From positions 477,033-541,032 of the forward strand of contig CAWJKM010000003.1 in assembly GCA_963843525.1 (NCBI GenBank): a stretch of DNA of 64,000 nt, read 5' to 3'. The stretch is from Ignavibacteriota bacterium. Its GTDB lineage: Bacteria; Bacteroidota; Ignavibacteria; UBA10030; UBA6906. Each line of letters starts with the position of its first letter. Positions within the stretch are counted from its first letter, which is position 1. The position numbers were made by a program, and so were the translations under genes. Under the pieces are notes generated by a model that was not told where the DNA came from, did no database searches, and saw only the letters and a program-made list of their open reading frames with translations. Shown piece after piece: positions 3,511-37,809 of this stretch.

Positions 3511-3511
3511 T

Positions 3512-4570: not shown

Positions 4571-4583
4571 GCAAGGAAGATCT

Positions 4584-5822: not shown

Positions 5823-6534
5823 GTCTGTGGCTCTGCTGTGGCGAGCCAAAGTGAGAGAGCACCAAAAGCGACCTTACGCAGCGAGCGGTAGGAGGAAAAG
5901 GCAGCCCATCCGTCCCCTTGGCGATCGGGAACATGTTGACTGGCATTGATGTCAGCTGATATGGCACGATAGCAGGAATTCAGATCCAGAAAGCTCCGTA
6001 CTGTCGCTGACAGACGGAGTTTTCTTTTCTAACCACCCCTTTGCCTCAGGACGGGGAAGCATGGCCCCAAGAAAAACTCTGGTATCGGACTTCGCCTGTG
6101 ACGATGATCACACAACGTTTCTTTTCGGAACACGAATGGCTATATTGGAAGTCAATCGCTCAGAAGCGCCGTCCTTTTGTGGAAAACCGTGTGTCCCTGG
6201 ATCGGCGTTTTTGTGATTTCGGGCACAGCGAGACTGGGCCGTTTTGCGCTCTATGGTACGGGTTGAAGAAATCGAACGCTGACTTAGAGGAGCAGAAACC
6301 GCAGTTCAGACATCGTGGCGTGAACCGGCGAGGCTGTCCGTCATGCCGCATTGTCGGGGGGGGGAGCACCCGTTATCGCCAATGCGGGCCCTCTTCGGGC
6401 TGGAGGGGGGCGCAAACCGAGTCCTGCAGCCTTCCTGCGTTCACCCGGCCGTTCGTCGGGTCGACGGAAAATTACTGAAGCTCTCTGTACCATGACAAAC
6501 GGATCGCGGTAGGACTGCAGGTGCCAAACCTTGT

Positions 6535-7449: not shown

Positions 7450-7471
7450 TATCTTTCTCCGGCATTACACC

Positions 7472-8389: not shown

Positions 8390-8534
8390 TCGGTCTTCCC
8401 GAGTTACGCTGAACCCAACAGGGAATTGTCTTACAACGGCTGCGACCTGCGCCGACACGATTTTCTCCACACCAAGACAGACGGAGTATTTTATCAGCGA
8501 TCTGAAGACACGGACGTTTAAGGGGAGTATCGTC

Positions 8535-9974: not shown

Positions 9975-10035
9975 GTTCAATCCAATCGATGCACAGGCGT
10001 TCTTAGCAAAACGAACTTATTGAGAGGAGTTCACC

Positions 10036-11256
10036 GTGGAACAGAAGCGCCAAGACAGTTGTCCGGCCTGTGGCCATGCGGCAATGCAGATTTTCTATGA
10101 TATCAATCAGGTGCCGGTCCACAGCGTATTGCTCATGGAGACCAGGGAACAGGCGCTCACGTATCCGAAGAGGGATATCAAGCTCGGGTTCTGTCCTTCG
10201 TGCGGGTTCATCTCGAACGTTGTGTTCGACCCTACTGTCCATGAGTATTCCTCGAAGTACGAAGAAACACAGGGCTTCTCCACCACCTTCCAGGATTTTC
10301 ACCACGGACTTGCGCAACGGCTGGTAGATCGCTATGACCTGCACGGAAAAGCCCTGATCGAAATAGGGTGCGGCAAAGGCGAGTTTCTCACGATGCTCTG
10401 TGAAATGGGGAACAATACGGGCGTGGGATTCGATCCGGCATATGTGAGTGAGCGGAATACCAGCCCGGCGCGAGACCGTATCAAGTTCATTAAAGATCTG
10501 TATTCGGAAAAATATACTTCGTATCACGGCGATTTCCTCTGCTGCAAGATGACGCTTGAACATATCCACCAGGTAGCGGACTTCATGAGCACCGTGCGCC
10601 GGTCAATCGGGGATCGTCGTGAAACTGTGGTGTTTTTCCAGATCCCGGAGATGAGCCGGATCCTCCATGAATGCGCGTTCTGGGATATTTATTACGAGCA
10701 CTGCTCCTATTTCACGCAAGGGTCGTTGGCCAGGCTCTTCAGGAAGACGGGATTTGATGTCGTGGATCTCGGAACCGAATACGACGGTCAATACCTGACC
10801 ATCGAAGCGAGACCGGGTACCGGTCATGGCACACCGTTGCTCCCCAAGGAAAATGATCTCAGCGCGACAGCGGAATCGGTGCGCGAATTCACCGCGTCCA
10901 TCAAGCGGACCCTTGACGGCTGGCAGGACCGGTTGCGCGAATACAAACGAGAAAACAAACGCGTCGTCATCTGGGGCGGTGGCTCAAAGGGCGTCGCTTT
11001 CCTGACGAAGTTGGATATCCGGGACCAGATCCAGTATGCCGTCGATGTCAATCCTTACAAGAAGGGGACGTTTATGGCGGGAACAGGGCAGGAGATTGTC
11101 CTTCCTGACTTTTTGACTACCTATCGGCCGGATGTGGTGATCGTCATGAATCCCATCTATGTGACGGAAATCGGGCAGGATCTCCTCAAACTGGGGCTTT
11201 CTCCAACGGTGATTCCGATTGTCGAAGATGGGCAAGTTCATGGAGGGAAAACGTGA
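10036..11256 (+). CDS. Zinc-ribbon SAM-dependent C-methyltransferase-like protein (paralog 2)
   Basis: CPACGH…CPSCGF ribbon, methyltransferase core (…LIEIGCGKGEF…) and C-methyltransferase-like C-terminal domain. Same architecture as the 4584 gene. GTG start preceded by a GAGGAG RBS. Confidence 0.7.
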   Translation: MEQKRQDSCPACGHAAMQIFYDINQVPVHSVLLMETREQALTYPKRDIKLGFCPSCGFISNVVFDPTVHEYSSKYEETQGFSTTFQDFHHGLAQRLVDRYDLHGKALIEIGCGKGEFLTMLCEMGNNTGVGFDPAYVSERNTSPARDRIKFIKDLYSEKYTSYHGDFLCCKMTLEHIHQVADFMSTVRRSIGDRRETVVFFQIPEMSRILHECAFWDIYYEHCSYFTQGSLARLFRKTGFDVVDLGTEYDGQYLTIEARPGTGHGTPLLPKENDLSATAESVREFTASIKRTLDGWQDRLREYKRENKRVVIWGGGSKGVAFLTKLDIRDQIQYAVDVNPYKKGTFMAGTGQEIVLPDFLTTYRPDVVIVMNPIYVTEIGQDLLKLGLSPTVIPIVEDGQVHGGKT

Positions 11257-12443
11257 TGGCCGCTGCGAACCCGCAAGCAATGTCCTGTCCTGTATGCGGC
11301 ACCGGACCGTTGAAGGAATTTATGAGTCTCACAGGTGTGCCGGTGCACTGCAATGTCCTGTGGCAGACGGCAGAGAAGGCCCTGGCTGCTCCCCGCGGCG
11401 ACCTCAGATTGGGGTTCTGTTCTTCGTGCGGCCATGTCTACAACATGGCGTTCGACCCCGCTTTGATGGAGTATACGCAGTCCTATGAGAATTCGCTGCA
11501 TTTCTCCCCGCGTTTCCAGGCCTATGCGAAAGCGCTGGCCGACCGGCTCATATCGACGTACGCGATTACGGGGAAGGACGTGATCGACATCGGCTGTGGC
11601 AAAGGAGATTTCCTCGCCATGCTCTGTCTGCAGGGGGAAAACAGGGGAGTGGGTTTCGACCCAAGCTATGTGCCGGAATATATGGAGGCGAATGCCGCCG
11701 CAAGAATGGAAATTGTGCGTGATTTCTATTCTCCGCGCTATACGAAATATTCCGCCGATCTTCTCACATGCAGGCATGTGCTTGAGCACATCCAGGCACC
11801 GCGCGATTTCGTCCGGAATGTCCGGGACGCTGTGGGTGACCGCACACAGAGTATTGTGTTTTTCGAGGTTCCCAATGTCCTCTATACGCTCCGCGATCTC
11901 GGGATCTGGGATCTCATCTATGAGCACTGCTCCTACTTCTCACGCTGGTCTCTGGCCAGGGTCTTTTCGGAGGAACGGTTCCAGGTGATCGCCGAGGAAG
12001 AGCTTTACGAGAGCCAGTTCCTGGGCATCGATCTCAAACCCGTGCCGGAAACCCGGAGACCGTCATCCCCCGTGCAACTCGGATCGATGCCGGAGGAAGT
12101 GAATTCATTTGCCAGGCATTACCAGCAGAAAGTGCAACACTGGCAGAAGGTGTTTTCACAGTTGAAAGAAAAAGGGAAACGGGCGGCGGTGTGGGGCGGG
12201 GGGTCAAAAGGGACGATGTTCCTGAACACGCTCAAACCCGGGGAGTCCGTCGCGTGTATGGTAGATATCAACCCGCGAAAGCAGGGGATGTTCGTTGCGG
12301 GAACAGGGTATCCCGTCGTGGGTCCTGATCGACTTGCGGGTATGGACCTGGACACGATTATCGTGATGAATCCGATTTACCGGGAGGAGATCATGACCCA
12401 GGTCGACCAGTTGGGAATTTCAGTCAATATCATGGTCGCTTGA
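11256..12443 (+). CDS. Zinc-ribbon SAM-dependent C-methyltransferase-like protein (paralog 3)
   Basis: CPVCGT…CSSCGH ribbon and …VIDIGCGKGDF… core, clearly paralogous to the preceding gene. Its start overlaps the upstream stop (GTGATGG). Confidence 0.7.
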   Translation: MAAANPQAMSCPVCGTGPLKEFMSLTGVPVHCNVLWQTAEKALAAPRGDLRLGFCSSCGHVYNMAFDPALMEYTQSYENSLHFSPRFQAYAKALADRLISTYAITGKDVIDIGCGKGDFLAMLCLQGENRGVGFDPSYVPEYMEANAAARMEIVRDFYSPRYTKYSADLLTCRHVLEHIQAPRDFVRNVRDAVGDRTQSIVFFEVPNVLYTLRDLGIWDLIYEHCSYFSRWSLARVFSEERFQVIAEEELYESQFLGIDLKPVPETRRPSSPVQLGSMPEEVNSFARHYQQKVQHWQKVFSQLKEKGKRAAVWGGGSKGTMFLNTLKPGESVACMVDINPRKQGMFVAGTGYPVVGPDRLAGMDLDTIIVMNPIYREEIMTQVDQLGISVNIMVA

Positions 12444-13249
12444 TGACGAAGTTTGCCCATTTCATATTGACGGTGTTCAATGTGCGGTTAAGCCACGGCG
12501 GCGAGACTTCCCCCGACAGTGCGTGGCTCGAACATCGGTTCCGCCTGTTTGAAGAGTTCTGTTATCCCTCTGTCCGGGCGCAAACCACGAGCGATTTCAC
12601 CTGGCTGGCTTTCTTCGACACCTCCACGCCGCCGGAATACAAGGACCGGATTGCACAACTGGCAAAGTGGAAACCCTTTGTTCCCTGTTTTGTCAGCGAA
12701 GTGATGTCGGTCGAGTCGTTCGCCGGAATGAAGAAGTCACTGCTCTTCCCCCGCGTTTCACCGGGGACGACGCATTTGATTTCCACGAATCTTGACAATG
12801 ACGATGCACTTCACGCTCGATACGTCGAGACGGTGCAAAAGGAGTTCTCGGGCCAGGATTTCGAATTTGTGAACTTCACCAATGGATATGTGTTCGACAG
12901 GGAACGGGAGAGGCTGTATTTGAGAAGGCATCACTCCAATCCTTTCGCCAGTCTCCTGGAGAGGCTGGAGAACTCAAAAACCGTCTGGTGCGCCCCTCAT
13001 CCCGAATTCTCCAGGATTGGTCCGGTCCGACAGGTGGAAACGGAACCGATGTGGTTCCAGGTGGTCCATGGGCGCAACGTCAGCAACAGCACCGCCGAAG
13101 CGCGCAGAGTCTCATTGGACAGCATCGGACATGGTTTCGATGCGGTGAAGATCATTCCCCGTCGGAGGGAATCACGGTCTTCCCTGGCATTGGAAAACGT
13201 TGCCATCCGCACGCGCGCCGTTCTTTCACGGATCACGGGCCGCCAATAA
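12443..13249 (+). CDS. Putative glycosyltransferase (rhamnosyltransferase-like DUF-type fold)
   Basis: Protein of about 268 aa. N-terminus …FILTVFNVRLSHG…WLEHRFRLFEEFCYPSVRAQT…FTWLAFFD… resembles the 'putative rhamnosyl transferase' family from memory; this is not verified. Confidence 0.45.
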   Translation: MTKFAHFILTVFNVRLSHGGETSPDSAWLEHRFRLFEEFCYPSVRAQTTSDFTWLAFFDTSTPPEYKDRIAQLAKWKPFVPCFVSEVMSVESFAGMKKSLLFPRVSPGTTHLISTNLDNDDALHARYVETVQKEFSGQDFEFVNFTNGYVFDRERERLYLRRHHSNPFASLLERLENSKTVWCAPHPEFSRIGPVRQVETEPMWFQVVHGRNVSNSTAEARRVSLDSIGHGFDAVKIIPRRRESRSSLALENVAIRTRAVLSRITGRQ

Positions 13250-13312
13250 TCGATCCGCGGTCCGGTGTCCCCGGAGTCGCCAGAACGAATTCATTCCTTC
13301 GAGACCAGTTCC

Positions 13313-14404
13313 ATGCTCCGAGTGTTTGCGATCTACCCATCGTTTGATCCACTGATGAACGAGATGGCGATCGTCTGGCATCACCTTGCGGCGGTCGGTG
13401 CTGTTCACTGCACCGTCGTTGCCAAAACGCGTGATGTCCTTAAGGGGTTTTCCTCCGCTGATGGAAACGAGCTCGATGGACATCTCTCAATTCACCGGTT
13501 CACGAAAATTCAAGCTGATCAGGCGCTCCTTTCGATTGCCCGATCGGCGAACCCTGATGTCATTTTCTGTGCGGTTGCTCATAATCTCCCGGTCGCCCTG
13601 GCGGTGGCTCGCGAGATCAGAAAGCCAATCGTTCTCCACACGGAGTTTTTCCTCGACGACGGGTATCTGATCCGAAGGCGGTATCACTTCGGATCCCGGG
13701 CGATTCGACGCGTCGAGGCCAACCTGTATCGGCGATATCTTGCCGGCGCTGTGCGTTTGATCCTTTCTTCCGATCCGCAGGAATTTCGCGATGGACCTTC
13801 CCCGCGATACCCGTCCCTGCGCTATCTTCCATGGCCGTTCTTCGGCCCCGTGCTCCCCGTGGGGTATGCAGAGCGGGACAAGTCGGCCTCGACGTACATA
13901 GGGTCCCTGAGCAAAATAAAAGGAGCAGGGGATCTGGCGCTCTATTGGAGGCATGCCTTGACGGAACTGCCGGATTTCAAGCTCTCCGTCATCGGGACGC
14001 CCGTGGACGCAGTGGGTCGAGCGGCGAGGGAGGAATTTCAAGCGTTGGCGGAGGGTGGGAGGATCGAAATGGTTCTGCATTGCGACCGTGAGGAGGCTAT
14101 GGAACGCATCCGCAGGGCGCTGTTCGTTTTCTCCCCCGGAAAAACATTCGGATGGGGTCTCATTCTGGATGCGTGGGCGACCGGGACCCCGGTGATTTCC
14201 CGCTCACCGCATTTTGATCTCGTTCCAGAGCAGAATTGCCTGATCGCCCGCAGCCCGCAGGAATTCGTTGCAAGCATCAAACGTCTCCGCCAGGATCCTC
14301 TTCTGTGGAAGAGGCTGCAAATGGGCGGACTTCAGAGTCTCCGCCAACACAGTCTTGAAAATGTATCGAATCTCCTTCTCGAATCTCTCCGACTGACAGT
14401 GTGA
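13313..14404 (+). CDS. Glycosyltransferase family 4 (GT1-fold)
   Basis: C-terminal GT1 motifs (…GWGLILDAWATGTPVISRS…). ATG at 13313 preferred over the upstream GTG at 13265. Confidence 0.7.
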   Translation: MLRVFAIYPSFDPLMNEMAIVWHHLAAVGAVHCTVVAKTRDVLKGFSSADGNELDGHLSIHRFTKIQADQALLSIARSANPDVIFCAVAHNLPVALAVAREIRKPIVLHTEFFLDDGYLIRRRYHFGSRAIRRVEANLYRRYLAGAVRLILSSDPQEFRDGPSPRYPSLRYLPWPFFGPVLPVGYAERDKSASTYIGSLSKIKGAGDLALYWRHALTELPDFKLSVIGTPVDAVGRAAREEFQALAEGGRIEMVLHCDREEAMERIRRALFVFSPGKTFGWGLILDAWATGTPVISRSPHFDLVPEQNCLIARSPQEFVASIKRLRQDPLLWKRLQMGGLQSLRQHSLENVSNLLLESLRLTV

Positions 14405-14425
14405 GCAGTGTCCTTCCCCGGTCTT

Positions 14426-15412
14426 TCACTTGATGACCGCCGGCCTCTCCGGCTTCACAACGGTTGCGGAGATGTGAAACTGTTCTGCTGGACGAATCCC
14501 GATGAAGATCCCCTTCGCAATATTCCAGGGGATAAGCACGCGTCGCTTTGCATAAAGCAGGACCTTTCGGGATCCTTTCCAGAGCAGAAGGAAAACCACG
14601 AAGAACCCGATCAAGGTCGCGCCCACCAACGCGGCGACAGGGAATCCAGTTGCTGCGAGAACGATGAGGAGAGCAGGAATTCCCCAGAGCCCCAATTGTT
14701 TCATGAGCTCGCCGGTTTGCAGCCGTATGATCCGCCAGCAAAGCGATGTAAACGGATAACCGCGTATCAGCTGTCCGACCCCCCTGAAGTACCGTGACTT
14801 CTCGTTCACTTCCCCGTGGTCCTGGACCTTTTCCACGTGCATTGCCATGTCGACCGGGATCTTCTCAAGCCGGTAGCCGGCGCTCCGGATTCGAAACCCG
14901 AGTTCCCGTTCTTCTTCCCCCAGCATGTAGGGATTGAAAGTCCCGGCACGTGCGAGCGCCGTCGACCGATACAGGGCCGCCCCCCCGAAGCACTCCACTT
15001 CGCCGGTGGGCGCTGTGTCCTTGCGGACGAAAGGTTCCGGTTCACCCGGCAGGGAACGATGAAGAAACCCTGCGACACCGCCGATCTTCTCATCAGTCAT
15101 CCTCTGCAATGCGGACGCTATCCACCCGGGGAGCATAATCATGTCCCCGTCAAGAAATTGGACGAAGGGTGCCGTGGCATAGGGCGATCCCGCGTACCTG
15201 CCGACACTCGGGGACAACAATGGAGACGGGTCCAATCGGACAATCGTTACCGGGTAGCGGGAAGCTATTGCCACTGTCTGGTCCGTTGATGCGGAATCGA
15301 CGAGGATGAGTTCGACCTGAAGATCTCCCCTGGTAGAGAGAATCGATTCGAGGCAAGGACCGATATTGGCACTCTCGTTCTTCGTAATAATAACGATGCT
15401 TACATCATTCAT
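14426..15412 (-). CDS. Glycosyltransferase family 2 with C-terminal transmembrane segments
   Basis: Only minus-strand gene in the first 47 kb. …VSIVIITKNESANI…LILVDSASTD…FLDGDM… followed by TM helices. The ATG at 15410-15412 gives the canonical GT2 start MNDVSIVII; the ORF track extends to 15625. Confidence 0.75.
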   Translation of the reverse strand: MNDVSIVIITKNESANIGPCLESILSTRGDLQVELILVDSASTDQTVAIASRYPVTIVRLDPSPLLSPSVGRYAGSPYATAPFVQFLDGDMIMLPGWIASALQRMTDEKIGGVAGFLHRSLPGEPEPFVRKDTAPTGEVECFGGAALYRSTALARAGTFNPYMLGEEERELGFRIRSAGYRLEKIPVDMAMHVEKVQDHGEVNEKSRYFRGVGQLIRGYPFTSLCWRIIRLQTGELMKQLGLWGIPALLIVLAATGFPVAALVGATLIGFFVVFLLLWKGSRKVLLYAKRRVLIPWNIAKGIFIGIRPAEQFHISATVVKPERPAVIK

Positions 15413-15766
15413 GAATGTCTCTGCGTTACTGATGTGTGTGCCGCACGACTCGGGCTTCTGAAGTCTCAAAGTAGCAGGGTGGCATGGAAGATGCAACCCG
15501 CGAAAGTCGTCACCGGTGAACAGAGGCGGGTGACCGAAATATCGCAACGTGGCCCCGTGCGCCCTCTTACAGGCGATCCTTTGTAGAAATCTGGAGAACA
15601 ACCATGTAGATGTTTGTGTTTCCACTGTCTACTCCTCGTTCCTTCCTGCTCTCGATCGTGGAATACAAGCCGGAATCCTTCTTTTCCGCCTTCGCTTGCT
15701 TCATGGCATAGGATGTGACCCAAAGCACACGGATTACATCAGCAACAGAAGGGGGCAGAGACTCCA

Positions 15767-18670
15767 ATGAGAGGATTACTCTGGATAGCGGTCATCGTAC
15801 TGATGGTTGTGAATACAGAAAACGGTTTCGGGCAGTCACATCTTTCAGCAGTCTGGGCAGTAGATGATGGAGAGAAAGTTCGGCAGGACGATTTGCAGCA
15901 CTGGGCAAAGAGCAGCGCGAACAACGAGGTCTGGAATGGCAGCAGCATCAGTCTCTTTGGGGCGATAAACGAAGTCGTGGCGTTCCAGGTGATCCTGGAG
16001 GCTGCCGGATCCCCGGCCAGCAATGTCACCGTTGCACTCGATTCGCTGGTGAATGGAAGCGCTGTTATCACAAATTCCGGCGTTGTGGGAGACCCATCGG
16101 ACTTTGTCGGCAAACACGTTGAACTGTTTGTCGAACATTATACAAACGTCACGCAGAGATCTCCGTTCACCGCGGGATACGGACTTCCCAATTCACGCCC
16201 ACTCCCCGATGCGGATTTTCTGGGCATGATGCCTGATGCCCTTGTTCCCTTTGATGCCCCGGTGAAATCGCCTGCACATGGTCAGGGAGGGGCGCCATTC
16301 GGGATTGGTGCGGGGAAGAACCAGGGAGTGTGGGTTGACATTTATATTCCCAAAGATGCCGTCGCGGGCGTCTATGCGGGGACCGTGCGAGTCGTCGAAG
16401 GAGGGGTAACCACCTATCGGCTCCCACTGACATTGAGAGTGTACAATTTCACTCTGCCCGACGAAACCCACCAGCGGAGTTTCTTTTCCTGGGATTCGGA
16501 CCTGTTGACGAATCGTTATGGCATTGCGTGCAACACGCCCGGGTACTGGGATATGTACCGCAAGTTCATGAACATGGCTCACCGCCACCGGATGACCCTG
16601 GTGGATGGGCGAGAAAACCTCGCGACGTTTGAATCCCACCTCGGCGAGTACTATACCGGTGCAGCATATACCGCGCAACATGGCTACGAAGGCCCAGGGA
16701 TGGGGGTAGGGGACAGGACCTATTCCATCGGGACCTATGATCAGCCGAACAATGGATTCATTTCGGGCTTTTCTCCCAACACCAAAGAAGTCTGGCAGGC
16801 TTCGGCGGACGCCTGGGAGCAGTGGTTTCTCGACAACGCCCCTCAGACCCTTCGGTTCAAATATTTTGATGACGAGGGCGATGTGACGAACCCGACGGTC
16901 GTCCAATCGATCCAGGACAAATGCACGTGGATCAAATCGAGTCCGGGCCCGGGGAAGAACCTTCATCGGTTCTTCACGAAGGAGTTCGTTTACAAGGGCT
17001 TCTATGATTACATCGATATCTGGTCGTTGTCTGCCCAGCCGGGCTTGCTGCTCAACGACATGCGAACACGGCGGCCCAGCGGCGATCTCTTTAGCAGTTA
17101 CAATGGAACACGGCCGATGTGGGGGAACATGGAGTTGATCGACGTGTATGCCACGGACAATCGGGTCAATCCATGGATCTGTTGGAAATACGGCGTGGAC
17201 CTCCTGTTTTACTGGACGACATCCTTCTATGCGGAGAACCTGCCTCCGAGTCCGAATGCAAAGAATGTGTGGAACGACAACTTCCTCCCCAGTGGTTCAC
17301 CCTATGGATCGATCAAGGCGTGGGGAGCGGGAATGTTGTTCTACCCCGGCGTGGACGTGCTCTATCCGGACGACTCCCGCGGTGTTCAGGGTCCCATCGG
17401 CTGTGTCAGGATCAAGAATTTCCGCAGGGGGCAGCAAGACTATGAGTACCTCTGGCTTGCCAAAAAGATGGGGATCGACGTCTCCGGTATCGTAAACCAG
17501 ATCGTCCCTCACGCTCTCGACGACTGGGGAGATAGCTATACGAGCAGTGCGGGTTTCAACCAACAGCCAACGTATGCTCAGAAGGGATACCTTTTCGAAA
17601 ATGCCCGTCGGGCGATCGCGCAAATGCTTGATGCCGAATCGGAGGGGGGGACTACTCCGGCCGGTACGATCTCCGTGACTCCTGGCGTTCTCCCCACAGG
17701 TGGTGGAACCGTGACGATCTCCTGGTCTGCGAGTGGAGTGTCCACCGCCCAGATTGACAATGGAATCGGAATTGTCGGGGCGAGCGGAACGAGGTCGCTG
17801 CAGGTGTCGAATACGACGACGTTTACCCTCACCGCCTCCAACGGAACGGATTCCTTGCGCGTTGCAAGCACCGTGAATGTGGAGTCCGGTGCTCCGGACA
17901 CCGCGAATATTGTGTCGAACCCGTCGTTCGAAAGCGGTACTTCACCGTGGGTTTCCTATTCGAACGGCAATGCTTCATTCGAGGCGAAGGGTCCCGGGCG
18001 GGATGGCCATCTCGCCGCGCATCTCAGCATCGCGCAGCCCGGATCAAACGAACAGCTGTACCAGTACGAGCTTGTCCTCGAGCCGAATACGGCATACCGT
18101 CTTGCGTTCTCCGCGTATTCCAACTCGGGAGACAATATGGATGTATCGCTCATCCAACATGTTGCTCCCTATGCGGACTACGGTCTCTCGGCCTCCTCAG
18201 TCGAGTTGGGCACGGGGTGGCAGGACTACACCATCGAGTTTACCACCAGGAATTTTTCGGCACCGGTCGACGATGGACGCCTACGATTCTCGTTTGCGCC
18301 CTACGCGCAGAGCGGGGACGAATACTGGATTGACAATGTCATGCTCCAGGAAGCGGAAACAGCCAGCGGCGTTTCTGCGCAGAGCGGCGGAAAGTCAGGT
18401 CCCTCCAAGTTTGGGCTGAATCAAAACTATCCCAATCCTTTCAATCCGACGACGCAGGTGACGTACACCCTTGCTGCTGCAGAACCCGTGACATTGAAAG
18501 TCTTCGATCCGCTCGGCCGTGAGATCGCGACCTTGGTTGACAGCGAGGAACAACGACCGGGGATGCACAGCGTGCAGTTCGATGGCGCGCACCTCTCGAG
18601 CGGCGCATATTTTTGCCGCCTGATAACTCCGCATTACGCCCAGACGATGAGGATGATGTTAGTTCGATAG
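15767..18670 (+). CDS. Secreted multidomain protein: signal peptide, conserved ~600-aa putative glycoside-hydrolase-like module, Ig-like domain, CBM4/9/22-like module, T9SS type-A C-terminal sorting domain
   Basis: N-terminal signal peptide MRGLLWIAVIVLMVV… is present. A CBM-like region (NPSFESGTSPW…YWIDNVMLQ) follows the conserved module. The C-terminus …NYPNPFNPTT…KVFDPLGREIATLV…SGAYFCRL… matches the Por_Secre_tail pattern. The ~600-aa N-terminal module is assigned as hydrolase-like by inference only. Confidence 0.75.
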   Translation: MRGLLWIAVIVLMVVNTENGFGQSHLSAVWAVDDGEKVRQDDLQHWAKSSANNEVWNGSSISLFGAINEVVAFQVILEAAGSPASNVTVALDSLVNGSAVITNSGVVGDPSDFVGKHVELFVEHYTNVTQRSPFTAGYGLPNSRPLPDADFLGMMPDALVPFDAPVKSPAHGQGGAPFGIGAGKNQGVWVDIYIPKDAVAGVYAGTVRVVEGGVTTYRLPLTLRVYNFTLPDETHQRSFFSWDSDLLTNRYGIACNTPGYWDMYRKFMNMAHRHRMTLVDGRENLATFESHLGEYYTGAAYTAQHGYEGPGMGVGDRTYSIGTYDQPNNGFISGFSPNTKEVWQASADAWEQWFLDNAPQTLRFKYFDDEGDVTNPTVVQSIQDKCTWIKSSPGPGKNLHRFFTKEFVYKGFYDYIDIWSLSAQPGLLLNDMRTRRPSGDLFSSYNGTRPMWGNMELIDVYATDNRVNPWICWKYGVDLLFYWTTSFYAENLPPSPNAKNVWNDNFLPSGSPYGSIKAWGAGMLFYPGVDVLYPDDSRGVQGPIGCVRIKNFRRGQQDYEYLWLAKKMGIDVSGIVNQIVPHALDDWGDSYTSSAGFNQQPTYAQKGYLFENARRAIAQMLDAESEGGTTPAGTISVTPGVLPTGGGTVTISWSASGVSTAQIDNGIGIVGASGTRSLQVSNTTTFTLTASNGTDSLRVASTVNVESGAPDTANIVSNPSFESGTSPWVSYSNGNASFEAKGPGRDGHLAAHLSIAQPGSNEQLYQYELVLEPNTAYRLAFSAYSNSGDNMDVSLIQHVAPYADYGLSASSVELGTGWQDYTIEFTTRNFSAPVDDGRLRFSFAPYAQSGDEYWIDNVMLQEAETASGVSAQSGGKSGPSKFGLNQNYPNPFNPTTQVTYTLAAAEPVTLKVFDPLGREIATLVDSEEQRPGMHSVQFDGAHLSSGAYFCRLITPHYAQTMRMMLVR

Positions 18671-18705
18671 CGCGAAATCTGCTTTCCAGGAATCCCATTG
18701 AATCG

Positions 18706-18743
18706 AAAAAGGAGCCTCATGCTGGTGTGAGGCTCCTTTTTTT
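18706..18743 (+). terminator. Rho-independent terminator
   Basis: Perfect 9-bp stem GGAGCCTCA…TGAGGCTCC with an 8-nt loop, preceded by an A-tract and followed by T7. It lies 36 bp after the stop at 18670. Confidence 0.6.
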
Positions 18744-18881
18744 GAAGGACCTTTTCATTGATTCATACCGTCTGGGAGCTCAGCTCCTGTCCCACATGTC
18801 TCCCAAATCGAACAGCAGGCTCACTAATAGGCAGAATTATCAGATTTTATGATAAACCAAAAATATATTATTCGCAAAAAC

Positions 18882-18916
18882 TATAATCACTTGCTTTTTC
18901 TCTCGAAAAATATAAT
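18882..18916 (+). promoter_or_regulatory. AT-rich putative promoter region with two TATAAT boxes upstream of the second T9SS paralog
   Basis: The 18745-18970 stretch is conspicuously AT-rich in a GC-rich genome. TATAAT occurs at 18882-18887 and at 18911-18916. No experimental support. Confidence 0.3.
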
Positions 18917-18971
18917 TTGTGTGAAGTCAAAAATGTTCTGTCCCTTTAAACCCCGATCTGTGGAATCCCCT

Positions 18972-21900
18972 ATGCGTTTAGTCTGGTATACTGTGCCCAT
19001 TCTTCTGCTTTTTTGTTCCTGCGCGAAGACAGTTGCTCAGCCTGGGGTGACACGAGTCTGGGCCATTGACGACGGAGAAAAAGTCAAGCAGGATGATCTT
19101 ACCAACCCCGCGAAGACAGGGGTGAACAACCCCGTTTGGGACGGCAGTCGCATTACGTTGTTTGGAGCCAAGAATGAGACTGTTGCGTTTCAGTTGATCC
19201 TCGAAGCGTCCGGAACGGGTGCAAGTAATGTCAATGTCGTACTCGACAGTCTGGTGAACGGCACTGCCGTTATCACGAACACCGGGTCGGCTGGACCCTT
19301 TTACTACGTCGGACGCCGGATCGATCTTTTTGTCGAGCACTATACAAATGTGACGCAGCGTTCACCGTACACGGGCGGGTATGGATTCTCGAACGCACGC
19401 GCTCTGCCTGATGATGATTTCCTCGGGTGGATTCCTGATGCACTCGTCCCCTTTGAAGCTCCCGTAAAGTCACCGGCGCACGGACAGGGCGGTGCCCCGT
19501 TCCCCATCCTTGCCGGAAAGACGCAGGCAGTCTGGGTGGATATCTACATCCCGAAGGATGCTGTGGCGGGGACGTACGCAGCCACGGTGCGCGTCACAGA
19601 AGGCGGAAGCACGACCTTCACCATCCCGCTGGCACTCTCAGTGTACAACTTCAGTCTGCCCGACGAAAACCATGCAAAATCTTTTTTCAACTGGGATCTT
19701 GACCTTCTGACCGCACGATACGGAATAACATACGGGAGCCCCGGCTACTGGGACATGTTCCGTAAGTTCATGAATTTTTCGCACCGGCATCGCATTGATC
19801 TGGTGGATGGCCGGGAATCGCTCGATGGTTTTGAATCCCATCTCGCGGAGTACTATACGGGCACTGCTTATACGGCGCAACACGGCTATGATGGCCCCGG
19901 TGTGGGCGTGGGGAACAAAGTCTATTCGATTGGCACCTATGACCAGCCGAACCATGGAGATGTCTCCGGGTTTGCTCCTGCCACTGCATCCGCGTGGCAA
20001 TCTGCAGCCGACGCGTGGGAAGGATGGTTCCAGAGCAATGCACCCGACGTTCTCCGGTTCAAGTATATGGATGACGAAGGGGATGTGAAAAATCCGGCCG
20101 TCGTGCAGCTGATCAAAGACAAGTGTTCATGGATCAAGTCGAGTCCCGGCCCGGGGAAAAACCTGCATCGATTCTTTACGAAAGAATTTGTCTATCAGGG
20201 ATTCTACGACTACATCGACATATGGTCATTGTCAGCGCAACCGGGAATACGGCTCAGCGACCTGAGTGCACGCAAGCCGGCCGGTAACCTCTTCAGTATG
20301 TACAACGGCACCCGGCCGATGTGGGGCAATATGGAGCTCCTCGACAATTATGCGACGGACAGCCGGGTGAACCCCTGGATCTCGTGGAAGTACGGCGTTG
20401 ATCTTTTCTTCTTCTGGATAACTTCGTTTTACGCAGAGAATCTGCCACCCAGCCCCAACGCAAAGAACGTCTGGGATGACAACTACATCCCTGGGGGAAC
20501 CCCCTATGGATCGAATAAAGCGTGGGGCGCAGGGATGGTCTTCTATCCCGGTATCGATGTCCTCTACCCGGCGGATTCCCGCGGCCTCCAGGGGCCCATC
20601 GGATGCATTCGACTGAACAACTACCGGCGCGGTCAACAGGACTATGAATACCTCTGGCTGGCGAAACAGGCAGGGATTGATGTCTCGGCGATGGTTGATA
20701 AAATCGTTCCTCATGCTCTCGATGATTGGGGAGGTTCCTATACCAGCGCCGGCGGGTTCGACCAGCAACCTGTGTATGCAGAGCATGGCTACATTTTCGA
20801 ACAGGTACGTCGCCAACTTGCCGATTCATTGGCAAGCCATGCCGGACAAATCGTGTTTCCACCGACAGGGACGTTTAGTGTGGACCCCACCGTGCTTCCT
20901 GCAGGAGGGGGGACGGTATCCCTCTCGTGGACTTCGTCGCATGCAACTTCTGCAACGATAAACAACGGCGTCGGTTCCGTACCCCTCGCGGATAGTGTGA
21001 AGCTCAACGTCAGTTCTTCGACCTCATACGTACTGACATTAGCCGGTTCCGGAGGGAGCATCCAATACGTTGCGTCCGTCTCCGTGGGAAGCAAACCTGC
21101 GGATCTTTCCGGAAACCTTATTTCCAACCCGGGTTTTGAAGATGGAACGACGGACTGGCTCTCATTTTCCGGCGGGTCCGCCTCCTTTACCATCGCAAGT
21201 CCGAGCATCGATGGATCGAATGCGGGGAACTTGTCCGTGACCTCGACCGGAACAAACATCCAGATCTATCAGTATAATCTTTCCCTGGAACCGGCGACGG
21301 CATACGAATTGACCTTTGCCGCCAAGTGCAATTCGGGTGATTCTATGGACGTGTCCCTCGGGAGACATGATGCGCCATTCACGAACTATGGCCTGGCATC
21401 GCAGCCGGTGAAATTGACGAACTCGTGGGCGGTGTATACCATCGATTTCACCACGAAGAACTTCACCGATATTGTTTCCAATGCGCGACTTCGATTCTCA
21501 TTTGAGGCGCATGCAAAGGCCGGCGATCAATACTGGATCGACAATATCTCGTTGAAAAAGAGGTCCTCGGCGAATCCTCTCCCGGTTACCCTCTCCGTCC
21601 CCCGACTATTGTTCCCTGCAACAGGAACATCGAATCTCTCGCAGGTGGTGGACTTTGTCTGGCACCCGGTGCAAGGGGCGACGGCCTATCAAGTGCAACT
21701 GGCGCTCGATTCGTTGTTCACACGGTTCGTTGTGAATGATTCGACTGTCTCCGACACAGTGCGGCAAGTCCGGGAACTGGCATATTCCACTCGGTACTAT
21801 CTTCGGCTCCGTGCCCTCAGTCCGGCGGGAGTCAGTGCCTACGGATCCACGGCGAGCTTTCTAACGATCCCGGCTCCCCCTTCCGGCACCCTCGCTGCAC

Positions 21901-22742
21901 CTCTCCTGACAGCTCCTCCCGCTGGGGCGAAGGACCTTCCGCGGACCATCATGTTTGTCTGGGAGGAGGTCATTGGAGCAAGCAAATACTATCTCGATGT
22001 CGCAAGGGACGAGGGCTTTTCTGACCGGGTGTTGTACGATTCAGCGACGGCGGGCAGCAAAACGGTGACACTGCCTGACAATCAGACCTTGTACTACTGG
22101 AGAATCCGTGCCTCGAACGGGACGACAGCAGGACTCGCCAGTGAAATCCGATTTTTCAATACGCAAGCGGCCGTGCTGCCTGTACCGGAGGTTCAGCTCG
22201 GCGGGATTGCTGCAAGCCCGCAGGGGCTGAAACAAGATGTGTCATGGGCACGAGTGCAAGGGGCGATACGGTATCAGTTCCAATCGGCAATGGATTCCCT
22301 GTTCGTCTCGGTGGTCGTGAACGATACGTCCCTCACGGATACAACTCGCGAGCTCACGGGGTTGGCTCCCCAGACACGTTATTTCGTTCGCGTACGCGCT
22401 GTCGGGGCTGATGGCAAAAGCCCGTTCACCCCGGTAGTCTCGTTCACTACCCCCGCGGATCCGAATTCAACTTCGCCGGCGGTCTTCGCCCTTGAGCAAA
22501 ACTTCCCCAATCCGTTTAACCCCCAAACGACCATCCGGTATCATCTTCCCATCGTCGCTGCAGTAAGCCTCACCGTGTTCAATGTGTTGGGGCAACAGGT
22601 GCGGAGTCTTGTTGACGAAGTACAGAAACCCGGATCCTACCAGGTGGTTCTTGACGCCGGGGACCTCGCCAGCGGGATGTATTTCTGCTGGCTCAAGGCC
22701 GGTCTGTTCACCCAGGTGCGTCGGCTGATTCTTGTGAAATAA
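18972..22742 (+). CDS. Secreted multidomain protein paralogous to 15767..18670: same ~600-aa module, Ig-like domain, CBM-like module, three FN3-like repeats and T9SS C-terminal sorting domain
   Basis: About 70% identical to the upstream paralog across the N-terminal module (VWAIDDGEKVKQDDL…, HRFFTKEFVYQGFYDYIDIWSLSAQPG). C-terminus …NFPNPFNPQTTIRY…SGMYFCWL… is a T9SS tail. Start taken at the ATG at 18972, which gives the signal peptide MRLVWYTVPILLLF…. Confidence 0.75.
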   Translation: MRLVWYTVPILLLFCSCAKTVAQPGVTRVWAIDDGEKVKQDDLTNPAKTGVNNPVWDGSRITLFGAKNETVAFQLILEASGTGASNVNVVLDSLVNGTAVITNTGSAGPFYYVGRRIDLFVEHYTNVTQRSPYTGGYGFSNARALPDDDFLGWIPDALVPFEAPVKSPAHGQGGAPFPILAGKTQAVWVDIYIPKDAVAGTYAATVRVTEGGSTTFTIPLALSVYNFSLPDENHAKSFFNWDLDLLTARYGITYGSPGYWDMFRKFMNFSHRHRIDLVDGRESLDGFESHLAEYYTGTAYTAQHGYDGPGVGVGNKVYSIGTYDQPNHGDVSGFAPATASAWQSAADAWEGWFQSNAPDVLRFKYMDDEGDVKNPAVVQLIKDKCSWIKSSPGPGKNLHRFFTKEFVYQGFYDYIDIWSLSAQPGIRLSDLSARKPAGNLFSMYNGTRPMWGNMELLDNYATDSRVNPWISWKYGVDLFFFWITSFYAENLPPSPNAKNVWDDNYIPGGTPYGSNKAWGAGMVFYPGIDVLYPADSRGLQGPIGCIRLNNYRRGQQDYEYLWLAKQAGIDVSAMVDKIVPHALDDWGGSYTSAGGFDQQPVYAEHGYIFEQVRRQLADSLASHAGQIVFPPTGTFSVDPTVLPAGGGTVSLSWTSSHATSATINNGVGSVPLADSVKLNVSSSTSYVLTLAGSGGSIQYVASVSVGSKPADLSGNLISNPGFEDGTTDWLSFSGGSASFTIASPSIDGSNAGNLSVTSTGTNIQIYQYNLSLEPATAYELTFAAKCNSGDSMDVSLGRHDAPFTNYGLASQPVKLTNSWAVYTIDFTTKNFTDIVSNARLRFSFEAHAKAGDQYWIDNISLKKRSSANPLPVTLSVPRLLFPATGTSNLSQVVDFVWHPVQGATAYQVQLALDSLFTRFVVNDSTVSDTVRQVRELAYSTRYYLRLRALSPAGVSAYGSTASFLTIPAPPSGTLAAPLLTAPPAGAKDLPRTIMFVWEEVIGASKYYLDVARDEGFSDRVLYDSATAGSKTVTLPDNQTLYYWRIRASNGTTAGLASEIRFFNTQAAVLPVPEVQLGGIAASPQGLKQDVSWARVQGAIRYQFQSAMDSLFVSVVVNDTSLTDTTRELTGLAPQTRYFVRVRAVGADGKSPFTPVVSFTTPADPNSTSPAVFALEQNFPNPFNPQTTIRYHLPIVAAVSLTVFNVLGQQVRSLVDEVQKPGSYQVVLDAGDLASGMYFCWLKAGLFTQVRRLILVK

Positions 22743-22853: not shown

Positions 22854-24056
22854 TTGTCTCACCTTGACTCCGGAAAAAGGGGATTGAACCCTGTGGACTC
22901 AACTGTTCTATCAAGTGTTGATCAACTCATGGCGCTTCGTCCTGAGTGGGAGAGTCTTTGGGCAGAAGCAGGGGGAACTCTCTACCAATCGTTTTTCTGG
23001 CTTTCCACGTGGTGGCAGGTCTACCATGACAAGGTCCAAATGCAGCTGCTGGTTGTCCGCGACGGAGGACGCCTTGTCGGACTGGTGCCCTGCTTTATTG
23101 AGGTAATGAAGTTCGGCCTCTTCCGCCTTCGTCGCCTTCGCATGATGGGTGAATATGAGACCTCCGGAGAATACGAGCCGCTCTACCTTCCGCAGTACAT
23201 GAAGGATGTCGCCGCGGCGTCGTCGGAATTTTACGCACAACTCCTTTTGCGCAAAGAAATCGACGTCATCGACTTCCACCATTTCTCTTCAGTGTCATCC
23301 GTTTTTGAGCAGATCGTGCAGAATCTCAGGGCCGGGGGGCTCTACGTTCGTCACGAGGCTCGAAGCGCTGTTCGCCTCGTTCTGGAGACTCCTCCGGATT
23401 GGCCAAGGTACCTGGATTTGCTCGCCAGACATGACCGTCGAAACCGTGAGAAGCACGAACGGGCGCTGTTCAGGAATGGCGCGGTACTCGAAATGATCCC
23501 CTGTGCCGGTAACGAGCAAGCATTCAATGATTTCGCGCAACTGCATACCAAAGCAATGGCGGCGCGATCCATTGGAGGGCATTTCGTTTCCAAGGAGCGG
23601 TATGGTGATTTTCTGAAAATGGTCACTTTTGGGGCAACCGACCCGGAGATGTCGCGGTGGTTCTTTTTGAAGAAAGGCGACGACCGATTCGCAGCGCTTC
23701 TGGTCTTTTATACACAGGACGCATGTTGCTTTTACCTGAGCGGGCGGGATCCCATTCATGAACTGTCGCGATTGGGCCCGGGGATCGTTCTCATGAACCT
23801 TGCGATCAAAGAGGCGATCCGTCGCGGGTGCAGATCTGTCGATTTCGTTGAAGGAGGAACCGCTTATAAATTCACGATGGGGGCAAAAGACCTGGGTTTT
23901 GGCAGGATATCCATCACGCGCCGGCGTTTCACCAGTATTGTTCTCATGACCTATATCGCAGTCGTCGTTTTTCGACAGAGCAGTCTCTGGAAAGAGTATC
24001 TGGAACCCCTGGATGTGCGATGGCGTTTTCGAAGGCTGCGGCACCATAAACCGTAG
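22854..24056 (+). CDS. GNAT-fold acyltransferase of the CelD/BioF2/FemAB-like family
   Basis: …LRPEWESLW…LYQSFFWLSTWW… N-terminal pattern and overall length are typical of CelD-like acetyltransferases in exopolysaccharide loci. Start uncertain between TTG at 22854, GTG near 22893 and ATG at 22929. Confidence 0.55.
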   Translation: MSHLDSGKRGLNPVDSTVLSSVDQLMALRPEWESLWAEAGGTLYQSFFWLSTWWQVYHDKVQMQLLVVRDGGRLVGLVPCFIEVMKFGLFRLRRLRMMGEYETSGEYEPLYLPQYMKDVAAASSEFYAQLLLRKEIDVIDFHHFSSVSSVFEQIVQNLRAGGLYVRHEARSAVRLVLETPPDWPRYLDLLARHDRRNREKHERALFRNGAVLEMIPCAGNEQAFNDFAQLHTKAMAARSIGGHFVSKERYGDFLKMVTFGATDPEMSRWFFLKKGDDRFAALLVFYTQDACCFYLSGRDPIHELSRLGPGIVLMNLAIKEAIRRGCRSVDFVEGGTAYKFTMGAKDLGFGRISITRRRFTSIVLMTYIAVVVFRQSSLWKEYLEPLDVRWRFRRLRHHKP

Positions 24057-24210
24057 CCAATTCATTGATTATTCCCACCGAAATCTGTATCTTTAACAGT
24101 TTGGCTGCGAGCAATGAGCCTCCTCACCCTCGCTTCAGGGGCACAGGGGGCAGAAGAACCGCGAAGAGCCCTCTCACCTTATCCGCCAACATCCAGAAGG
24201 TAACAGCGCG

Positions 24211-24684
24211 ATGTTCTCCAAAGGGAAGATCCACGACATCGTCGTGCACGATCTTGTGAAGTTCATTGATGATCGAGGATGGCTCACAGAGCTCTATCGG
24301 GCAGATGACCTCGATGCCTCCTATCACCCGGTCATGGGCTACATTTCCATTACTCTCCCCGGCGTCCCGCGGGGACCCCATGAGCACGTCGATCAGGCGG
24401 ACAATTTTGCGTTCATCGGGCCATCGGATTTTAAGATCTACCTCTGGGACAATCGCCCCACCTCCCCCACCTACAAGATTCGGCAGACGTTTTTCGCGGG
24501 GGAAAATGCTCCCCGGTCTCTCATCATTCCCCCGGGAGTAGTCCACGCCTACAAGAACGTCGGGGGGAAACCCGGGATGGTGGTGAACCTGCCCAATCGC
24601 CTGTACGCCGGCGAGAAGAAACGATCCCCTGTTGATGAAATCCGCCACGAAAGCGACCCCAACTCTCCTTTCCTCCTGGATTGA
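24211..24684 (+). CDS. dTDP-4-dehydrorhamnose 3,5-epimerase family cupin (RmlC-like), intact copy
   Basis: 157-aa cupin with …DDRGWLTELYR…GPHEHV…GVVHAYKNVG…. Its stop overlaps the start of the downstream rmlB remnant (TTGACATG). Confidence 0.7.
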   Translation: MFSKGKIHDIVVHDLVKFIDDRGWLTELYRADDLDASYHPVMGYISITLPGVPRGPHEHVDQADNFAFIGPSDFKIYLWDNRPTSPTYKIRQTFFAGENAPRSLIIPPGVVHAYKNVGGKPGMVVNLPNRLYAGEKKRSPVDEIRHESDPNSPFLLD

Positions 24685-28499: not shown

Positions 28500-28817
28500 A
28501 TGTCTACTGACGGGCCCATTATGGGTGCGGTCGGTGGCGGTCTTCTCATACATTGTGATCACCGCGGATGGTTGCGGGAAGTGCATCGGAAGGGCGAGGT
28601 CGAACAGCAGCACCTTCCGGTTATGAGTTCCATATCGAGGACAACCCCCGGGACCGCGCGGGGAACGCATGAGCATGTCGCGAAGGCCGATCCAATTTGT
28701 TCTACCGGTCCGTCGGATTCCGAATACTGTTTCCGAGACGGCCGCAAATTCTCACCTCCGAATCTCATTCGCCATGAAGGCGACTCCTCCTCACCCTACA
28801 ATCTCGACTGCCTATGA
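28500..28817 (+). pseudogene. Degraded RmlC-like cupin remnant (in-frame internal deletion of the cupin core)
   Basis: N-terminus MSTDGPIMGAVGGGLLIHCDHRGWLREV… aligns with the intact 24211 copy (…FIDDRGWLTELY…). C-terminus …NLIRHEGDSSSPYNLD aligns with …DEIRHESDPNSPFLLD. About 50 central residues are missing. It keeps the same stop/start overlap with the downstream rmlB. Confidence 0.55.
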
Positions 28818-29821: not shown

Positions 29822-29830
29822 GCTAAATAC

Positions 29831-31528: not shown

Positions 31529-31630
31529 TTGGTCTTTTGACGCAGTTCCGTGCGTTCTCGGCCGTGTCGCAGAGCTACGAAACTCGCAACGGTGTCACAC
31601 TCTCATTGACCGTTTATCGAATTCGGACTG

Positions 31631-32872: not shown

Positions 32873-32876
32873 GGCA

Positions 32877-34313: not shown

Positions 34314-34337
34314 GCGCCTAAAAAGCAGGAGCGGAAT

Positions 34338-37779: not shown

Positions 37780-37809
37780 ACTTATTATCAGATCGAACGG
37801 AATGTGACC

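Follow-up and report, generated by a model that had tools for sequence, protein, structure and literature searches.

The stretch of DNA analyzed here (the window: 64,000 nucleotides of contig CAWJKM010000003.1 of an Ignavibacteriota bacterium, assembly GCA_963843525.1) contains two consecutive genes, named A and B in this work, which encode large secreted proteins and lie between two blocks of polysaccharide synthesis genes. Both open reading frames (ORFs) are present on the + strand at the coordinates given in a preliminary description of this DNA. The longest ORF of gene B begins at 18849, and the start at 18972 (MRLVWY...) yields the 1256-amino-acid (aa) protein recorded by NCBI, where both proteins carry only the name 'carbohydrate binding domain-containing protein'. 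BLASTP comparison of A with B gave 65% identity over 872 aa. The N-terminal parts are 70% identical over 638 aa, with 71% over the first 625 aa, and the C-terminal tails are 44% identical (BLASTP). The preliminary description had recognized paralogues that share an N-terminal module of about 600 aa at ~70% identity, and this is confirmed over 625-638 aa. It had also proposed an immunoglobulin (Ig)-like domain, a carbohydrate-binding module (CBM) and a type IX secretion system (T9SS) tail in both proteins, and three FN3-like (fibronectin type III-like) repeats in B; all of these were recovered by Pfam and NCBIfam searches, the structural model of A and self-alignment of the repeats. The features are collected in Table 1.

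Table 1. Features of genes A and B and of the surrounding polysaccharide locus. Positions are those of the window.
Feature	Position	Strand	Basis
Upstream synthesis block	1067..15625		Pfam/NCBIfam; gene order matches locus L001
Gene A, 967 aa: signal peptide, GH123-like module, Ig-like domain, CBM_4_9, T9SS type A tail	15767..18670	+	ORF, Pfam/NCBIfam, structure models
Predicted Sec signal peptide of A (aa 1-23)	15767..15835	+	Hydrophobic segment aa 3-21; model helix 2-15, then low-confidence linker; cleavage site inferred
N-terminal beta-sandwich of GH123-like module of A (aa 24-235), holds D157 and W189	15836..16471	+	phmmer vs 8k2f aa 28-244; PF22680 at 180-209; all-strand model
(beta/alpha)8 barrel, DUF4091-like region and C-terminal helix of A (aa 236-627)	16472..17647	+	AlphaFold2, Foldseek, hhalign
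Putative catalytic Asp369-Glu370 of A, in FKYFDDEGDV	16871..16876	+	Conservation; alignment to NgaCa D287-E288
Ig-like beta-sandwich linker of A (aa 630-706)	17654..17884	+	Seven strands 632-705 in model; no Pfam match, fold class inferred
CBM_4_9 module of A (aa 713-862)	17903..18352	+	PF02018; beta-sandwich 729-862 in model
T9SS type A C-terminal sorting domain of A (aa 880-967)	18404..18667	+	TIGR04183, PF18962; seven-strand sandwich 881-965
Intrinsic-terminator-like hairpin and U-run after gene A	18703..18745	+	Fold energy, shuffles
AT-rich leader upstream of gene B, possible promoter region	18840..18971	+	Base composition; function inferred
Gene B, 1256 aa: architecture of A plus three FN3-like repeats	18972..22742	+	ORF, BLASTP vs A, Pfam, identical NCBI protein
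Putative catalytic Asp368-Glu369 of B, in FKYMDDEGDV	20073..20078	+	Motif position; alignment with A
CBM_4_9 module of B (aa 714-866)	21111..21569	+	PF02018
Three FN3-like repeats of B (aa 877-968, 977-1067, 1072-1163)	21600..22460	+	Self-alignment; Pfam on third repeat
T9SS type A C-terminal sorting domain of B (aa 1178-1256)	22503..22739	+	TIGR04183
Acetyltransf_6 (FemAB/GNAT-like) and RmlC-like cupin genes, conserved neighbours	22854..24684	+	Pfam
Second polysaccharide block: RmlB, Wza-like exporter, Wzx, Wzy-like polymerase, GT4, WbpS-like amidotransferase, GT2	28814..47096	+	Pfam/NCBIfam

The shared N-terminal module was modelled with AlphaFold2 (A aa 1-638; predicted local distance difference test score, pLDDT, 89.2; predicted template modelling score, pTM, 0.91). 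The model shows an N-terminal beta-sandwich followed by a (beta/alpha)8 barrel of the GH123/DUF4091 (glycoside hydrolase family 123) type, and not an adhesin fold. When it was compared with the PDB using Foldseek, the top 22 matches were all members of the GH123 superfamily (E 3.6e-38 to 9e-24), and the next fold class appeared at E 5e-8 or worse, with a template modelling (TM) score of ~0.25. The best match was 8k2f (E 3.6e-38, TM 0.79 on the target, 21% identity), the structure of NgaCa from Cohnella abietis (PDB 8K2F/8K2G), a Group 1 oligosaccharide-releasing beta-N-acetylgalactosaminidase of a distant GH123 subfamily (Sumida et al. 2024, PMC11087588). A phmmer search of the PDB sequences with the single sequence also returned 8k2f first (E 1.4e-20), followed by BvGH123, NgaDssm and CpNga123. 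A profile of 60 sequences matched NgaCa at E 4.8e-38, then NgaDssm (Group 3) at 2.5e-23, NgaAt (Group 2) at 3.4e-16, BvGH123 at 3e-12, CpNga123 at 2.8e-5 and NgaP2 (Group 4) at 1.2e-3, an order with which Foldseek agrees. Finally, hhalign of the module profile against five Group 1 sequences, rebuilt from Supplementary Data 3 of PMC11087588 and HMMER output, gave a probability of 100% and E 6e-55. Judged by sequence profiles and the predicted structure, the module is a divergent member of the GH123/DUF4091 superfamily whose nearest match is Group 1 NgaCa; the earlier guess of a glycosidase-like module with a GH123/DUF4091-like fold was borne out by Foldseek, profile searches and hhalign alike. 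Judged from the profile and Foldseek rankings, the clade could lie inside Group 1 or be a sister of it.

The identity of the module to any characterised enzyme is 21-27%, and the Pfam results are in keeping with such distances. PF22680 scores barely above its cutoff of 27 in A and B (28.0 and 27.4 bits) and covers aa 180-209 only, PF19543 is at or below its cutoff, and PF13320 (DUF4091/GH123_cat) gave no match to A or B at E up to 0.1; PF13320 is, however, present in relatives at ~40% identity. The HMMER alignments are confined to the N-terminal sandwich and the C-terminal DUF4091-like part, with aa 520-573 falling on the DUF4091 part of NgaCa. Additionally, a clade-specific conserved extra stretch was observed at about aa 295-340 (consensus GYxGPGxGVGNxTYSIGTYDQP).

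In the hhalign alignment, D369-E370 of A, located at the end of strand 362-369 of the model, coincide with D287 and E288 of NgaCa, which are the stabiliser and the acid/base of that enzyme, respectively (PMC11087588 Suppl. Table 8). The conserved catalytic Asp/Glu that the preliminary description proposed to look for is thus present: in the homologue alignment the glutamate is found in 60 of 60 sequences and the aspartate in 59, and the Asp-Glu motif is intact in A, B and both orthologues. The same supplementary table lists nine residues conserved across all five GH123 groups, eight of which are kept in A according to the profile alignment (D157, W189, D369, E370, Y445, W483, Y526 and R548). 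The equivalents of the substrate-facing Tyr445 and Trp483 are invariant in all 60 homologues. Two motifs had been pointed out previously, and both were found; DDEGDV holds the catalytic pair, whereas no role was found for VDGREN, which lies in a conserved strand and loop following an invariant HRHR motif. The aromatic residues of the NgaCa subsites -2/-3 (W197, W218 and W249) align to D243, E283 and Y324 of A, in a low-confidence stretch of the profile alignment.

These residues bear on the possibility that the GH123 fold was kept while the chemistry changed, so that A and B would act on a sugar other than an N-acetylhexosamine (HexNAc), work as transglycosylases or serve mainly for surface binding or as a scaffold. 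We consider this unlikely, because the conservation of the Asp-Glu pair and of the Tyr445 and Trp483 equivalents is hard to explain without catalysis of the family type, even though the low identity to characterised enzymes, the PF13320 result, the conserved extra stretch, the loss of one conserved glycine and the in vitro inactivity of NgaMg, another Group 1 protein, would all fit such a change.

Both proteins possess one N-terminal hydrophobic segment (aa 3-21) that, as read from hydrophobicity, fits a signal peptide. In the full-length AlphaFold2 model of A, three all-beta domains follow the module: Ig-like (632-705), CBM (729-862) and tail (881-965). PF02018 matched A at 713-833 (E 9.5e-13, 49.1 bits) and B at 714-840 (E 1.4e-13, 51.8 bits), with a cutoff of 25.9, and TIGR04183 scored 27.5 bits in A and 32.4 bits in B (cutoff 23). 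The repeats of B are ~92 aa each and share 18 invariant columns when aligned; the third one matches the Pfam families fn3, Ig_Rha78A_N and Pur_ac_phosph_N. A third T9SS cargo gene is located in the window at 55335-57245, and a gene of the PorV/PorQ family starts at 63260 (NF033709, 127 bits vs a cutoff of 90) and is cut by the window end. The T9SS core genes (porK/L/M/N, sov) are outside the 64-kb window.

The distribution of the family was analyzed by a homologue search in which 8000 candidates were scored and relatives were counted at E of 1e-3 or better. At least 681 relatives were found, and at least 520 encoding stretches were confirmed by a genome scan. They span Ignavibacteriota, Bacteroidota, Myxococcota, Armatimonadota, Acidobacteriota, Chloroflexota, Planctomycetota and others; a plasmid search returned only one remote Nostoc relative. 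The nearest genomes among the matches listed were metagenome-assembled genomes (MAGs) of Ignavibacteriota (78%) and Bacteroidota (75%). In locus L001 the same tandem pair (966 and 1266 aa) stands between the same genes. Since the orthologues are more similar to each other (79% for A and 84% for B) than A is to B (71%), the duplication is older than the species split, and both copies were kept.

The synteny check suggested in the preliminary description gave a positive answer at two levels. The pair is conserved between the same genes where the proteins are 79-84% identical, and single-module relatives at 41-48% adjoin the same methyltransferase, flippase and glycosyltransferase genes: P0025 (48% identical, a single module with no tail) and P0067 (41%) are both found beside genes for Wzx, twin methyltransferase-like proteins and glycosyltransferases (GTs). 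Linkage was counted by tblastn of the synthesis proteins of the window against all fetched loci, using a distance of 10 kb and a split of the loci at 41% identity of the glycoside hydrolase (GH). A C-methyltransferase homologue was present within this distance in 11 of the 20 loci whose GH was at least 41% identical, and in none of the 59 loci below, a pattern that overstates the number of independent events because the compared loci share ancestry. Among the synthesis genes of the window that were tested, those for C-methyltransferase-like proteins are the commonest beside the GH123-like clade. A Pfam census showed that near-clade neighbours are rich in T9SS tails, CBM_4_9, fn3, GT1, Methyltransf_23/14, beta-helix and PIG-L families, with PIG-L deacetylases in three related neighbourhoods, and that no TonB/SusCD-type uptake genes flank the near-clade genes. 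The neighbours of distant relatives (TonB receptors, ABC transporters, sortilin/BNR, xylose-isomerase-like and GH42-like proteins) resemble those of nutrient-uptake loci. The link to polysaccharide synthesis genes is conserved and clade-specific. Because the same sugar-nucleotide, methyltransferase, flippase and glycosyltransferase genes recur next to members of the clade, the polymer of the locus is the most likely substrate. We therefore favour, with slightly better than even confidence, the reading that A and B are T9SS-delivered enzymes of the retaining endo-beta-N-acetylhexosaminidase type that process the polysaccharide made by their own locus.

The same neighbourhoods are relevant to another account, according to which A and B would be foraging or competitive T9SS glycosidases for foreign HexNAc glycans, such as the exopolysaccharides of other microbes or fungal or animal glycans. 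Foraging enzymes of this bacterial group are usually exported by T9SS, as exemplified by Flavobacterium ChiA. The position of the pair would then reflect a variable surface-glycan region that collects secreted carbohydrate-active enzymes (CAZymes), with no substrate in common. Both parts of this account seem to us possible although doubtful. It agrees with the catabolic character of the classical GH123 enzymes and of the distant relatives, near which TonB receptor, ABC transporter and GH42-like genes are found, and with the apparently separate transcription of A and B; on the other hand, the link to specific C-methyltransferase-like paralogues and Wzx holds at GH identities of 41-79% in several MAG lineages. 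Signs of cassette shuffling in the window (an inserted TviB/TviC-like gene pair and a truncated RmlC-like gene) and other secreted degradative-looking proteins in related loci (Pel9A-like beta-helix with CBM and T9SS tail) would also suit foraging, whereas the absence of the link from all 59 more distant loci and of TonB/SusCD-type genes beside near-clade genes would not. If the foraging account is right, A and B are ordinary secreted CAZymes.

With respect to processing of the locus's own polymer, homologues of the CBM of A (40-44% identity) were found on Pel9A-like beta-helix proteins that have T9SS tails and adjoin the GH123-like gene in several loci. The presence of the same CBM on GH123-like and Pel9A-like proteins suggests that several enzyme classes are aimed at one polymer.

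Two types of gene arrangement were observed among the relatives. In L004/L022 (5089-8286, 11843-14860), from Bacteroidota MAGs, a single-module GH123-like gene has on either side a gene for a Pel9A-like right-handed beta-helix protein of ~1000 aa with a T9SS tail, and the protein encoded upstream has a CBM_4_9 40% identical to that of A; genes for a Toluene_X/FadL-type outer-membrane protein and a GDSL lipase-like protein are also nearby, and neighbours are similar in L014 and L016. On the JGI contig of P0007 (14,026 bases, sample 3300075153), four paralogues of the family form one array: proteins of 966 and 965 aa, which have the CBM and the T9SS tail, alternate with shorter ones of 660 and 646 aa, which lack both. 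This alternation suggests that surface and non-T9SS versions work as pairs.

The glycosyltransferase, flippase and export genes that the preliminary description placed on both sides of A and B were identified, as was a polymerase gene. The upstream block comprises genes for a priming polyprenyl glycosylphosphotransferase (phosphoglycosyl transferase), an NTP-transferase, a short-chain dehydrogenase/reductase (SDR) family dehydratase/epimerase, three TylC3-type C-methyltransferase-like proteins, two GT2 enzymes, a Wzx flippase, a rhamnosyltransferase-like protein and a GT1 enzyme. The three C-methyltransferase-like paralogues (4512-5822, 10036-11256 and 11253-12443) each combine a Zn-finger with Methyltransf_23 and Methyltransf_14. 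Together with the NTP-transferase, the SDR dehydratase-like enzyme, RmlB and the RmlC-like cupin, they suggest that the polymer contains at least one methyl-branched or methylated 6-deoxyhexose. Directly 3' of the pair, the Acetyltransf_6 gene (22854-24056) and the RmlC-like cupin gene have orthologues in the same place in L001, L006 and L007 (51-53% and 81-84% identical, respectively). Genes for a nucleotide-sugar dehydrogenase and an epimerase, and then RmlB, come between the cupin gene and the remainder of the second block, in which the WbpS-like amidotransferase matches TIGR03108 at 583 bits, below the cutoff.

Some of these genes recall the Wbp/Vim pathway, by which T9SS type A cargo is anchored to the cell surface, of which VimA is the aminoacyl-sugar transferase in P. 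gingivalis. The locus could accordingly be thought to build a covalent anchor glycan, analogous to Porphyromonas A-LPS (A-type lipopolysaccharide), with A and B as its cargo and not as cutters of the polymer. The conserved Acetyltransf_6 gene directly behind the pair and the PIG-L genes of the three related neighbourhoods could be read in this way, and so could the WbpS-like amidotransferase and the nucleotide-sugar dehydrogenase, except that the last two are located outside the part of the window that is conserved with the pair. Homologues of WbpB, WbpD or WbpE were not seen, and the tail-less single-module relatives P0025 and P0067 keep the same linkage, which makes the anchor-glycan explanation very unlikely in our view.

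The preliminary description considered A and B to be separately transcribed, with a clean terminator after A and a promoter region before B. The hairpin after A (core GGAGCCUCA / UGAGGCUCC, followed by U7) has a folding energy of -24.7 kcal/mol (z = -4.77), and 0 of 200 shuffled sequences were as stable; the consensus terminator scan did not list it at 18703-18745, and it was confirmed by folding instead. The 132 bases preceding B have a G+C content of 31%, compared to 56% in genes. The terminator hairpin and the AT-rich leader were thus confirmed, whereas the consensus scan upstream of B called no sigma-70-like promoter on the + strand. A and B appear to be separate transcription units, with a presumed promoter before B.

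Several other features of the window were noted during the analysis. Relative to the orthologous loci L001 and L007, ~4 kb of extra DNA (24684-28817) is present between the RmlC-like gene and rmlB. It contains genes for a TviB-like nucleotide-sugar dehydrogenase (25458-26762) and a TviC-like epimerase (26765-27700), followed by ~0.8 kb with no convincing ORF; Rfam gave no hits in the gene-free stretch 27600-28900. A truncated second RmlC-like ORF (28500-28817, 105 aa, 41% identical to the product of the gene at 24211) abuts rmlB, and the whole segment looks like a cassette junction or an insertion scar. The TviB/TviC-like pair (25458-27700) was considered as a clue to a HexNAc-uronic acid substrate and rejected, as its scores are far below the equivalog cutoffs and it is absent from the orthologous loci. 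Likewise, a 400-aa ORF on the - strand (3287-4489, TTG start, no Pfam match) was discarded as an antisense shadow of the real + strand genes for the NTP-transferase (2737-3510) and the SDR enzyme (3512-4570); its translated 'homologues' elsewhere fall inside epimerase genes. In the second block, a 664-aa fusion-like protein (45102-47096) consists of an N-terminal GT2, CoA_binding_3 and only the last ~45 residues of Bac_transf, and may be a degenerate or rearranged priming transferase. A gene for a '23S rRNA-intervening sequence protein' (44594-45058; PF05635, E 2.4e-37) is squeezed in between glycosyltransferase genes of the same block. At the end of the window (54257-64000), a gene for a LacI-family regulator, the T9SS cargo gene mentioned above, whose product carries a CBM9-like domain, and a TonB-dependent receptor gene (57330-60005) were found. 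They are followed by a gene for a 1079-aa secreted protein with no family match (60018-63257), at the place where a PorU-like sortase next to porV might be expected; neither Peptidase_C25 nor the PorU model gave a match to this protein.

The data presented above directly support the assigned fold, the conservation of the catalytic pair, the arrangement of domains, the presence of secretion signals and the conserved gene linkage. In the mechanism that we propose, A and B would be a pair of secreted glycoside hydrolases, products of an ancient duplication, that reach the periplasm by means of the Sec signal peptide and are passed by the type A C-terminal domain to the T9SS, ending at the cell surface or being released. 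By homology, catalysis would be of the substrate-assisted retaining type, with Asp369 orienting the 2-acetamido group of a beta-linked HexNAc at subsite -1 and Glu370 acting as the acid/base. The CBM_4_9, together with the FN3-like spacers in B, would hold the enzyme on the polysaccharide, and the substrate, the heteropolysaccharide of this locus, would be cut internally for chain trimming, release or turnover. HexNAc specificity and endo action are probable by analogy with Group 1 of the GH123 family, and the gene linkage makes the polymer of the locus the probable substrate.

It is important to mention the findings that weigh against this proposal. A profile of the barrel alone (aa 236-450) retrieved nothing meaningful from the PDB sequences, the barrel being too diverged for detection by hidden Markov models. 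Because HMMER alone leaves the central barrel unmatched, the position assigned to the catalytic pair depends on the global profile-profile alignment with Group 1. The ninth conserved residue, glycine G399 of NgaCa, aligns to L479 of A and is Q, L, M or H across the clade. The endo action of A and B is presumptive, since the subsites were compared in a low-confidence stretch of the profile alignment. Among the Group 1 proteins, Gal-beta-1,3-GalNAc-beta-pNP is the only substrate on which NgaCa is active, and NgaMg showed no activity on any substrate tried (PMC11087588). None of the genes conserved with the pair is specific for a HexNAc precursor, and L001 and L007 lack the TviB/TviC-like genes. 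Moreover, besides the shared ancestry of the compared loci, 7 of the 20 near-clade loci have no synthesis genes in reach, including all three from Myxococcota/'Deltaproteobacteria'; some of the others are on short contigs. Owing to the terminator of A and the AT-rich leader of B, co-regulation of the pair with the synthesis genes is not implied.

Compared with known systems, A and B are most similar to NgaCa, which is their best match in both sequence and structure and has the same two-domain core with the Asp-Glu at the same aligned position; the equivalents of NgaCa D109, W144, Y363, W403, Y434 and R449 are also present in A. They differ from it, apart from the low identity and the replaced G399, in that their module is ~100 aa longer, with the extra barrel stretch and the C-terminal helix. 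Furthermore, NgaCa is a 513-aa single module, whereas the modules of A and B are fused to an Ig-like domain, CBM_4_9 and a T9SS tail (and to FN3-like repeats in B only) and form a tandem pair inside a synthesis locus. The authors who described Group 1 reported a cleft-shaped active site and, prompted by gene neighbourhoods, suggested long repeating exopolysaccharides or O-antigens as substrates (PMC11087588). The classical GH123 enzymes (NgaP, CpNga123 5FQE and BvGH123 5L7R) are pocket-type exo-beta-N-acetylgalactosaminidases that act on glycans of host glycosphingolipids and mucins, and extra loops close their -2 side (PMC11087588). They share the fold and, by homology, the substrate-assisted retaining DE mechanism with A and B, but are only 11-14% identical to the A/B module (Foldseek) and occur in catabolic gene contexts.

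Glycanases and lyases acting on the exopolysaccharide of their own producer are exemplified by PslG, PelA, BcsZ and AlgL. Sinorhizobium meliloti reportedly has two extracellular glycanases, ExoK and ExsH, for a single polymer, succinoglycan. In all these systems the polymer is cut, while nascent or once mature, by a hydrolase or lyase whose gene is linked to those for synthesis, and the same is proposed here for A and B. However, activity on the cognate polymer has been demonstrated for these enzymes, their folds are unrelated (GH16, GH39, GH166, GH8, PL5), they are periplasmic or use type I secretion and not T9SS, and none is known to have a CBM_4_9 with a type A tail. The T9SS-secreted hydrolases of Bacteroidota, such as Flavobacterium johnsoniae ChiA, resemble A and B in having a signal peptide, a C-terminal sorting domain and a multidomain architecture with binding modules, but they serve in foraging on external polymers and are not known to lie within synthesis loci.

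According to the preliminary description, a tandem pair of this type was not a known arrangement. Our literature search found no paper describing the combination of T9SS, CBM and GH123-like module. The novelty is nevertheless smaller than was claimed, as the GH123 family has been characterised (crystal structures 2016-2024), an exopolysaccharide role was proposed for Group 1 in 2024 (PMC11087588), and secreted glycanases that process the producer's exopolysaccharide are already known in other folds. What is new here is that a distinct clade, so far unannotated, has been recognized, that its modules are fused to CBM_4_9 and T9SS tails, that the tandem duplication has been retained, and that, by the linkage counts, this clade and not its relatives accompanies a particular set of synthesis genes.

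The natural substrates of cleft-type (Group 1) GH123 enzymes have so far been guessed at, and the present clade offers a testable pairing of an enzyme, a binding module and a biosynthetic locus. This pairing is conserved across several uncultured lineages of Ignavibacteriota and Bacteroidota. Public annotation misses the enzyme part of the proteins altogether. In a wider version of the proposal, which we regard as rather unlikely, T9SS would place two depolymerases on the cell surface where they and, in related genomes, the beta-helix enzymes that share their CBM would govern the chain length or the release of the methylated-deoxysugar/HexNAc polymer made by the cell itself. A more speculative form would make this polymer also the anchor glycan of the cargo itself. 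If the depolymerase version were true, a natural substrate would for the first time be identifiable for a GH123-type enzyme, and exopolysaccharide maturation would include a T9SS-dependent step not described before. If A and B do process the polymer of the locus, the small set of enzymes that process self-polysaccharides would come to include a new fold and a new secretion route (T9SS), and there would be a handle on the surface glycans of uncultured soil and sediment bacteria.

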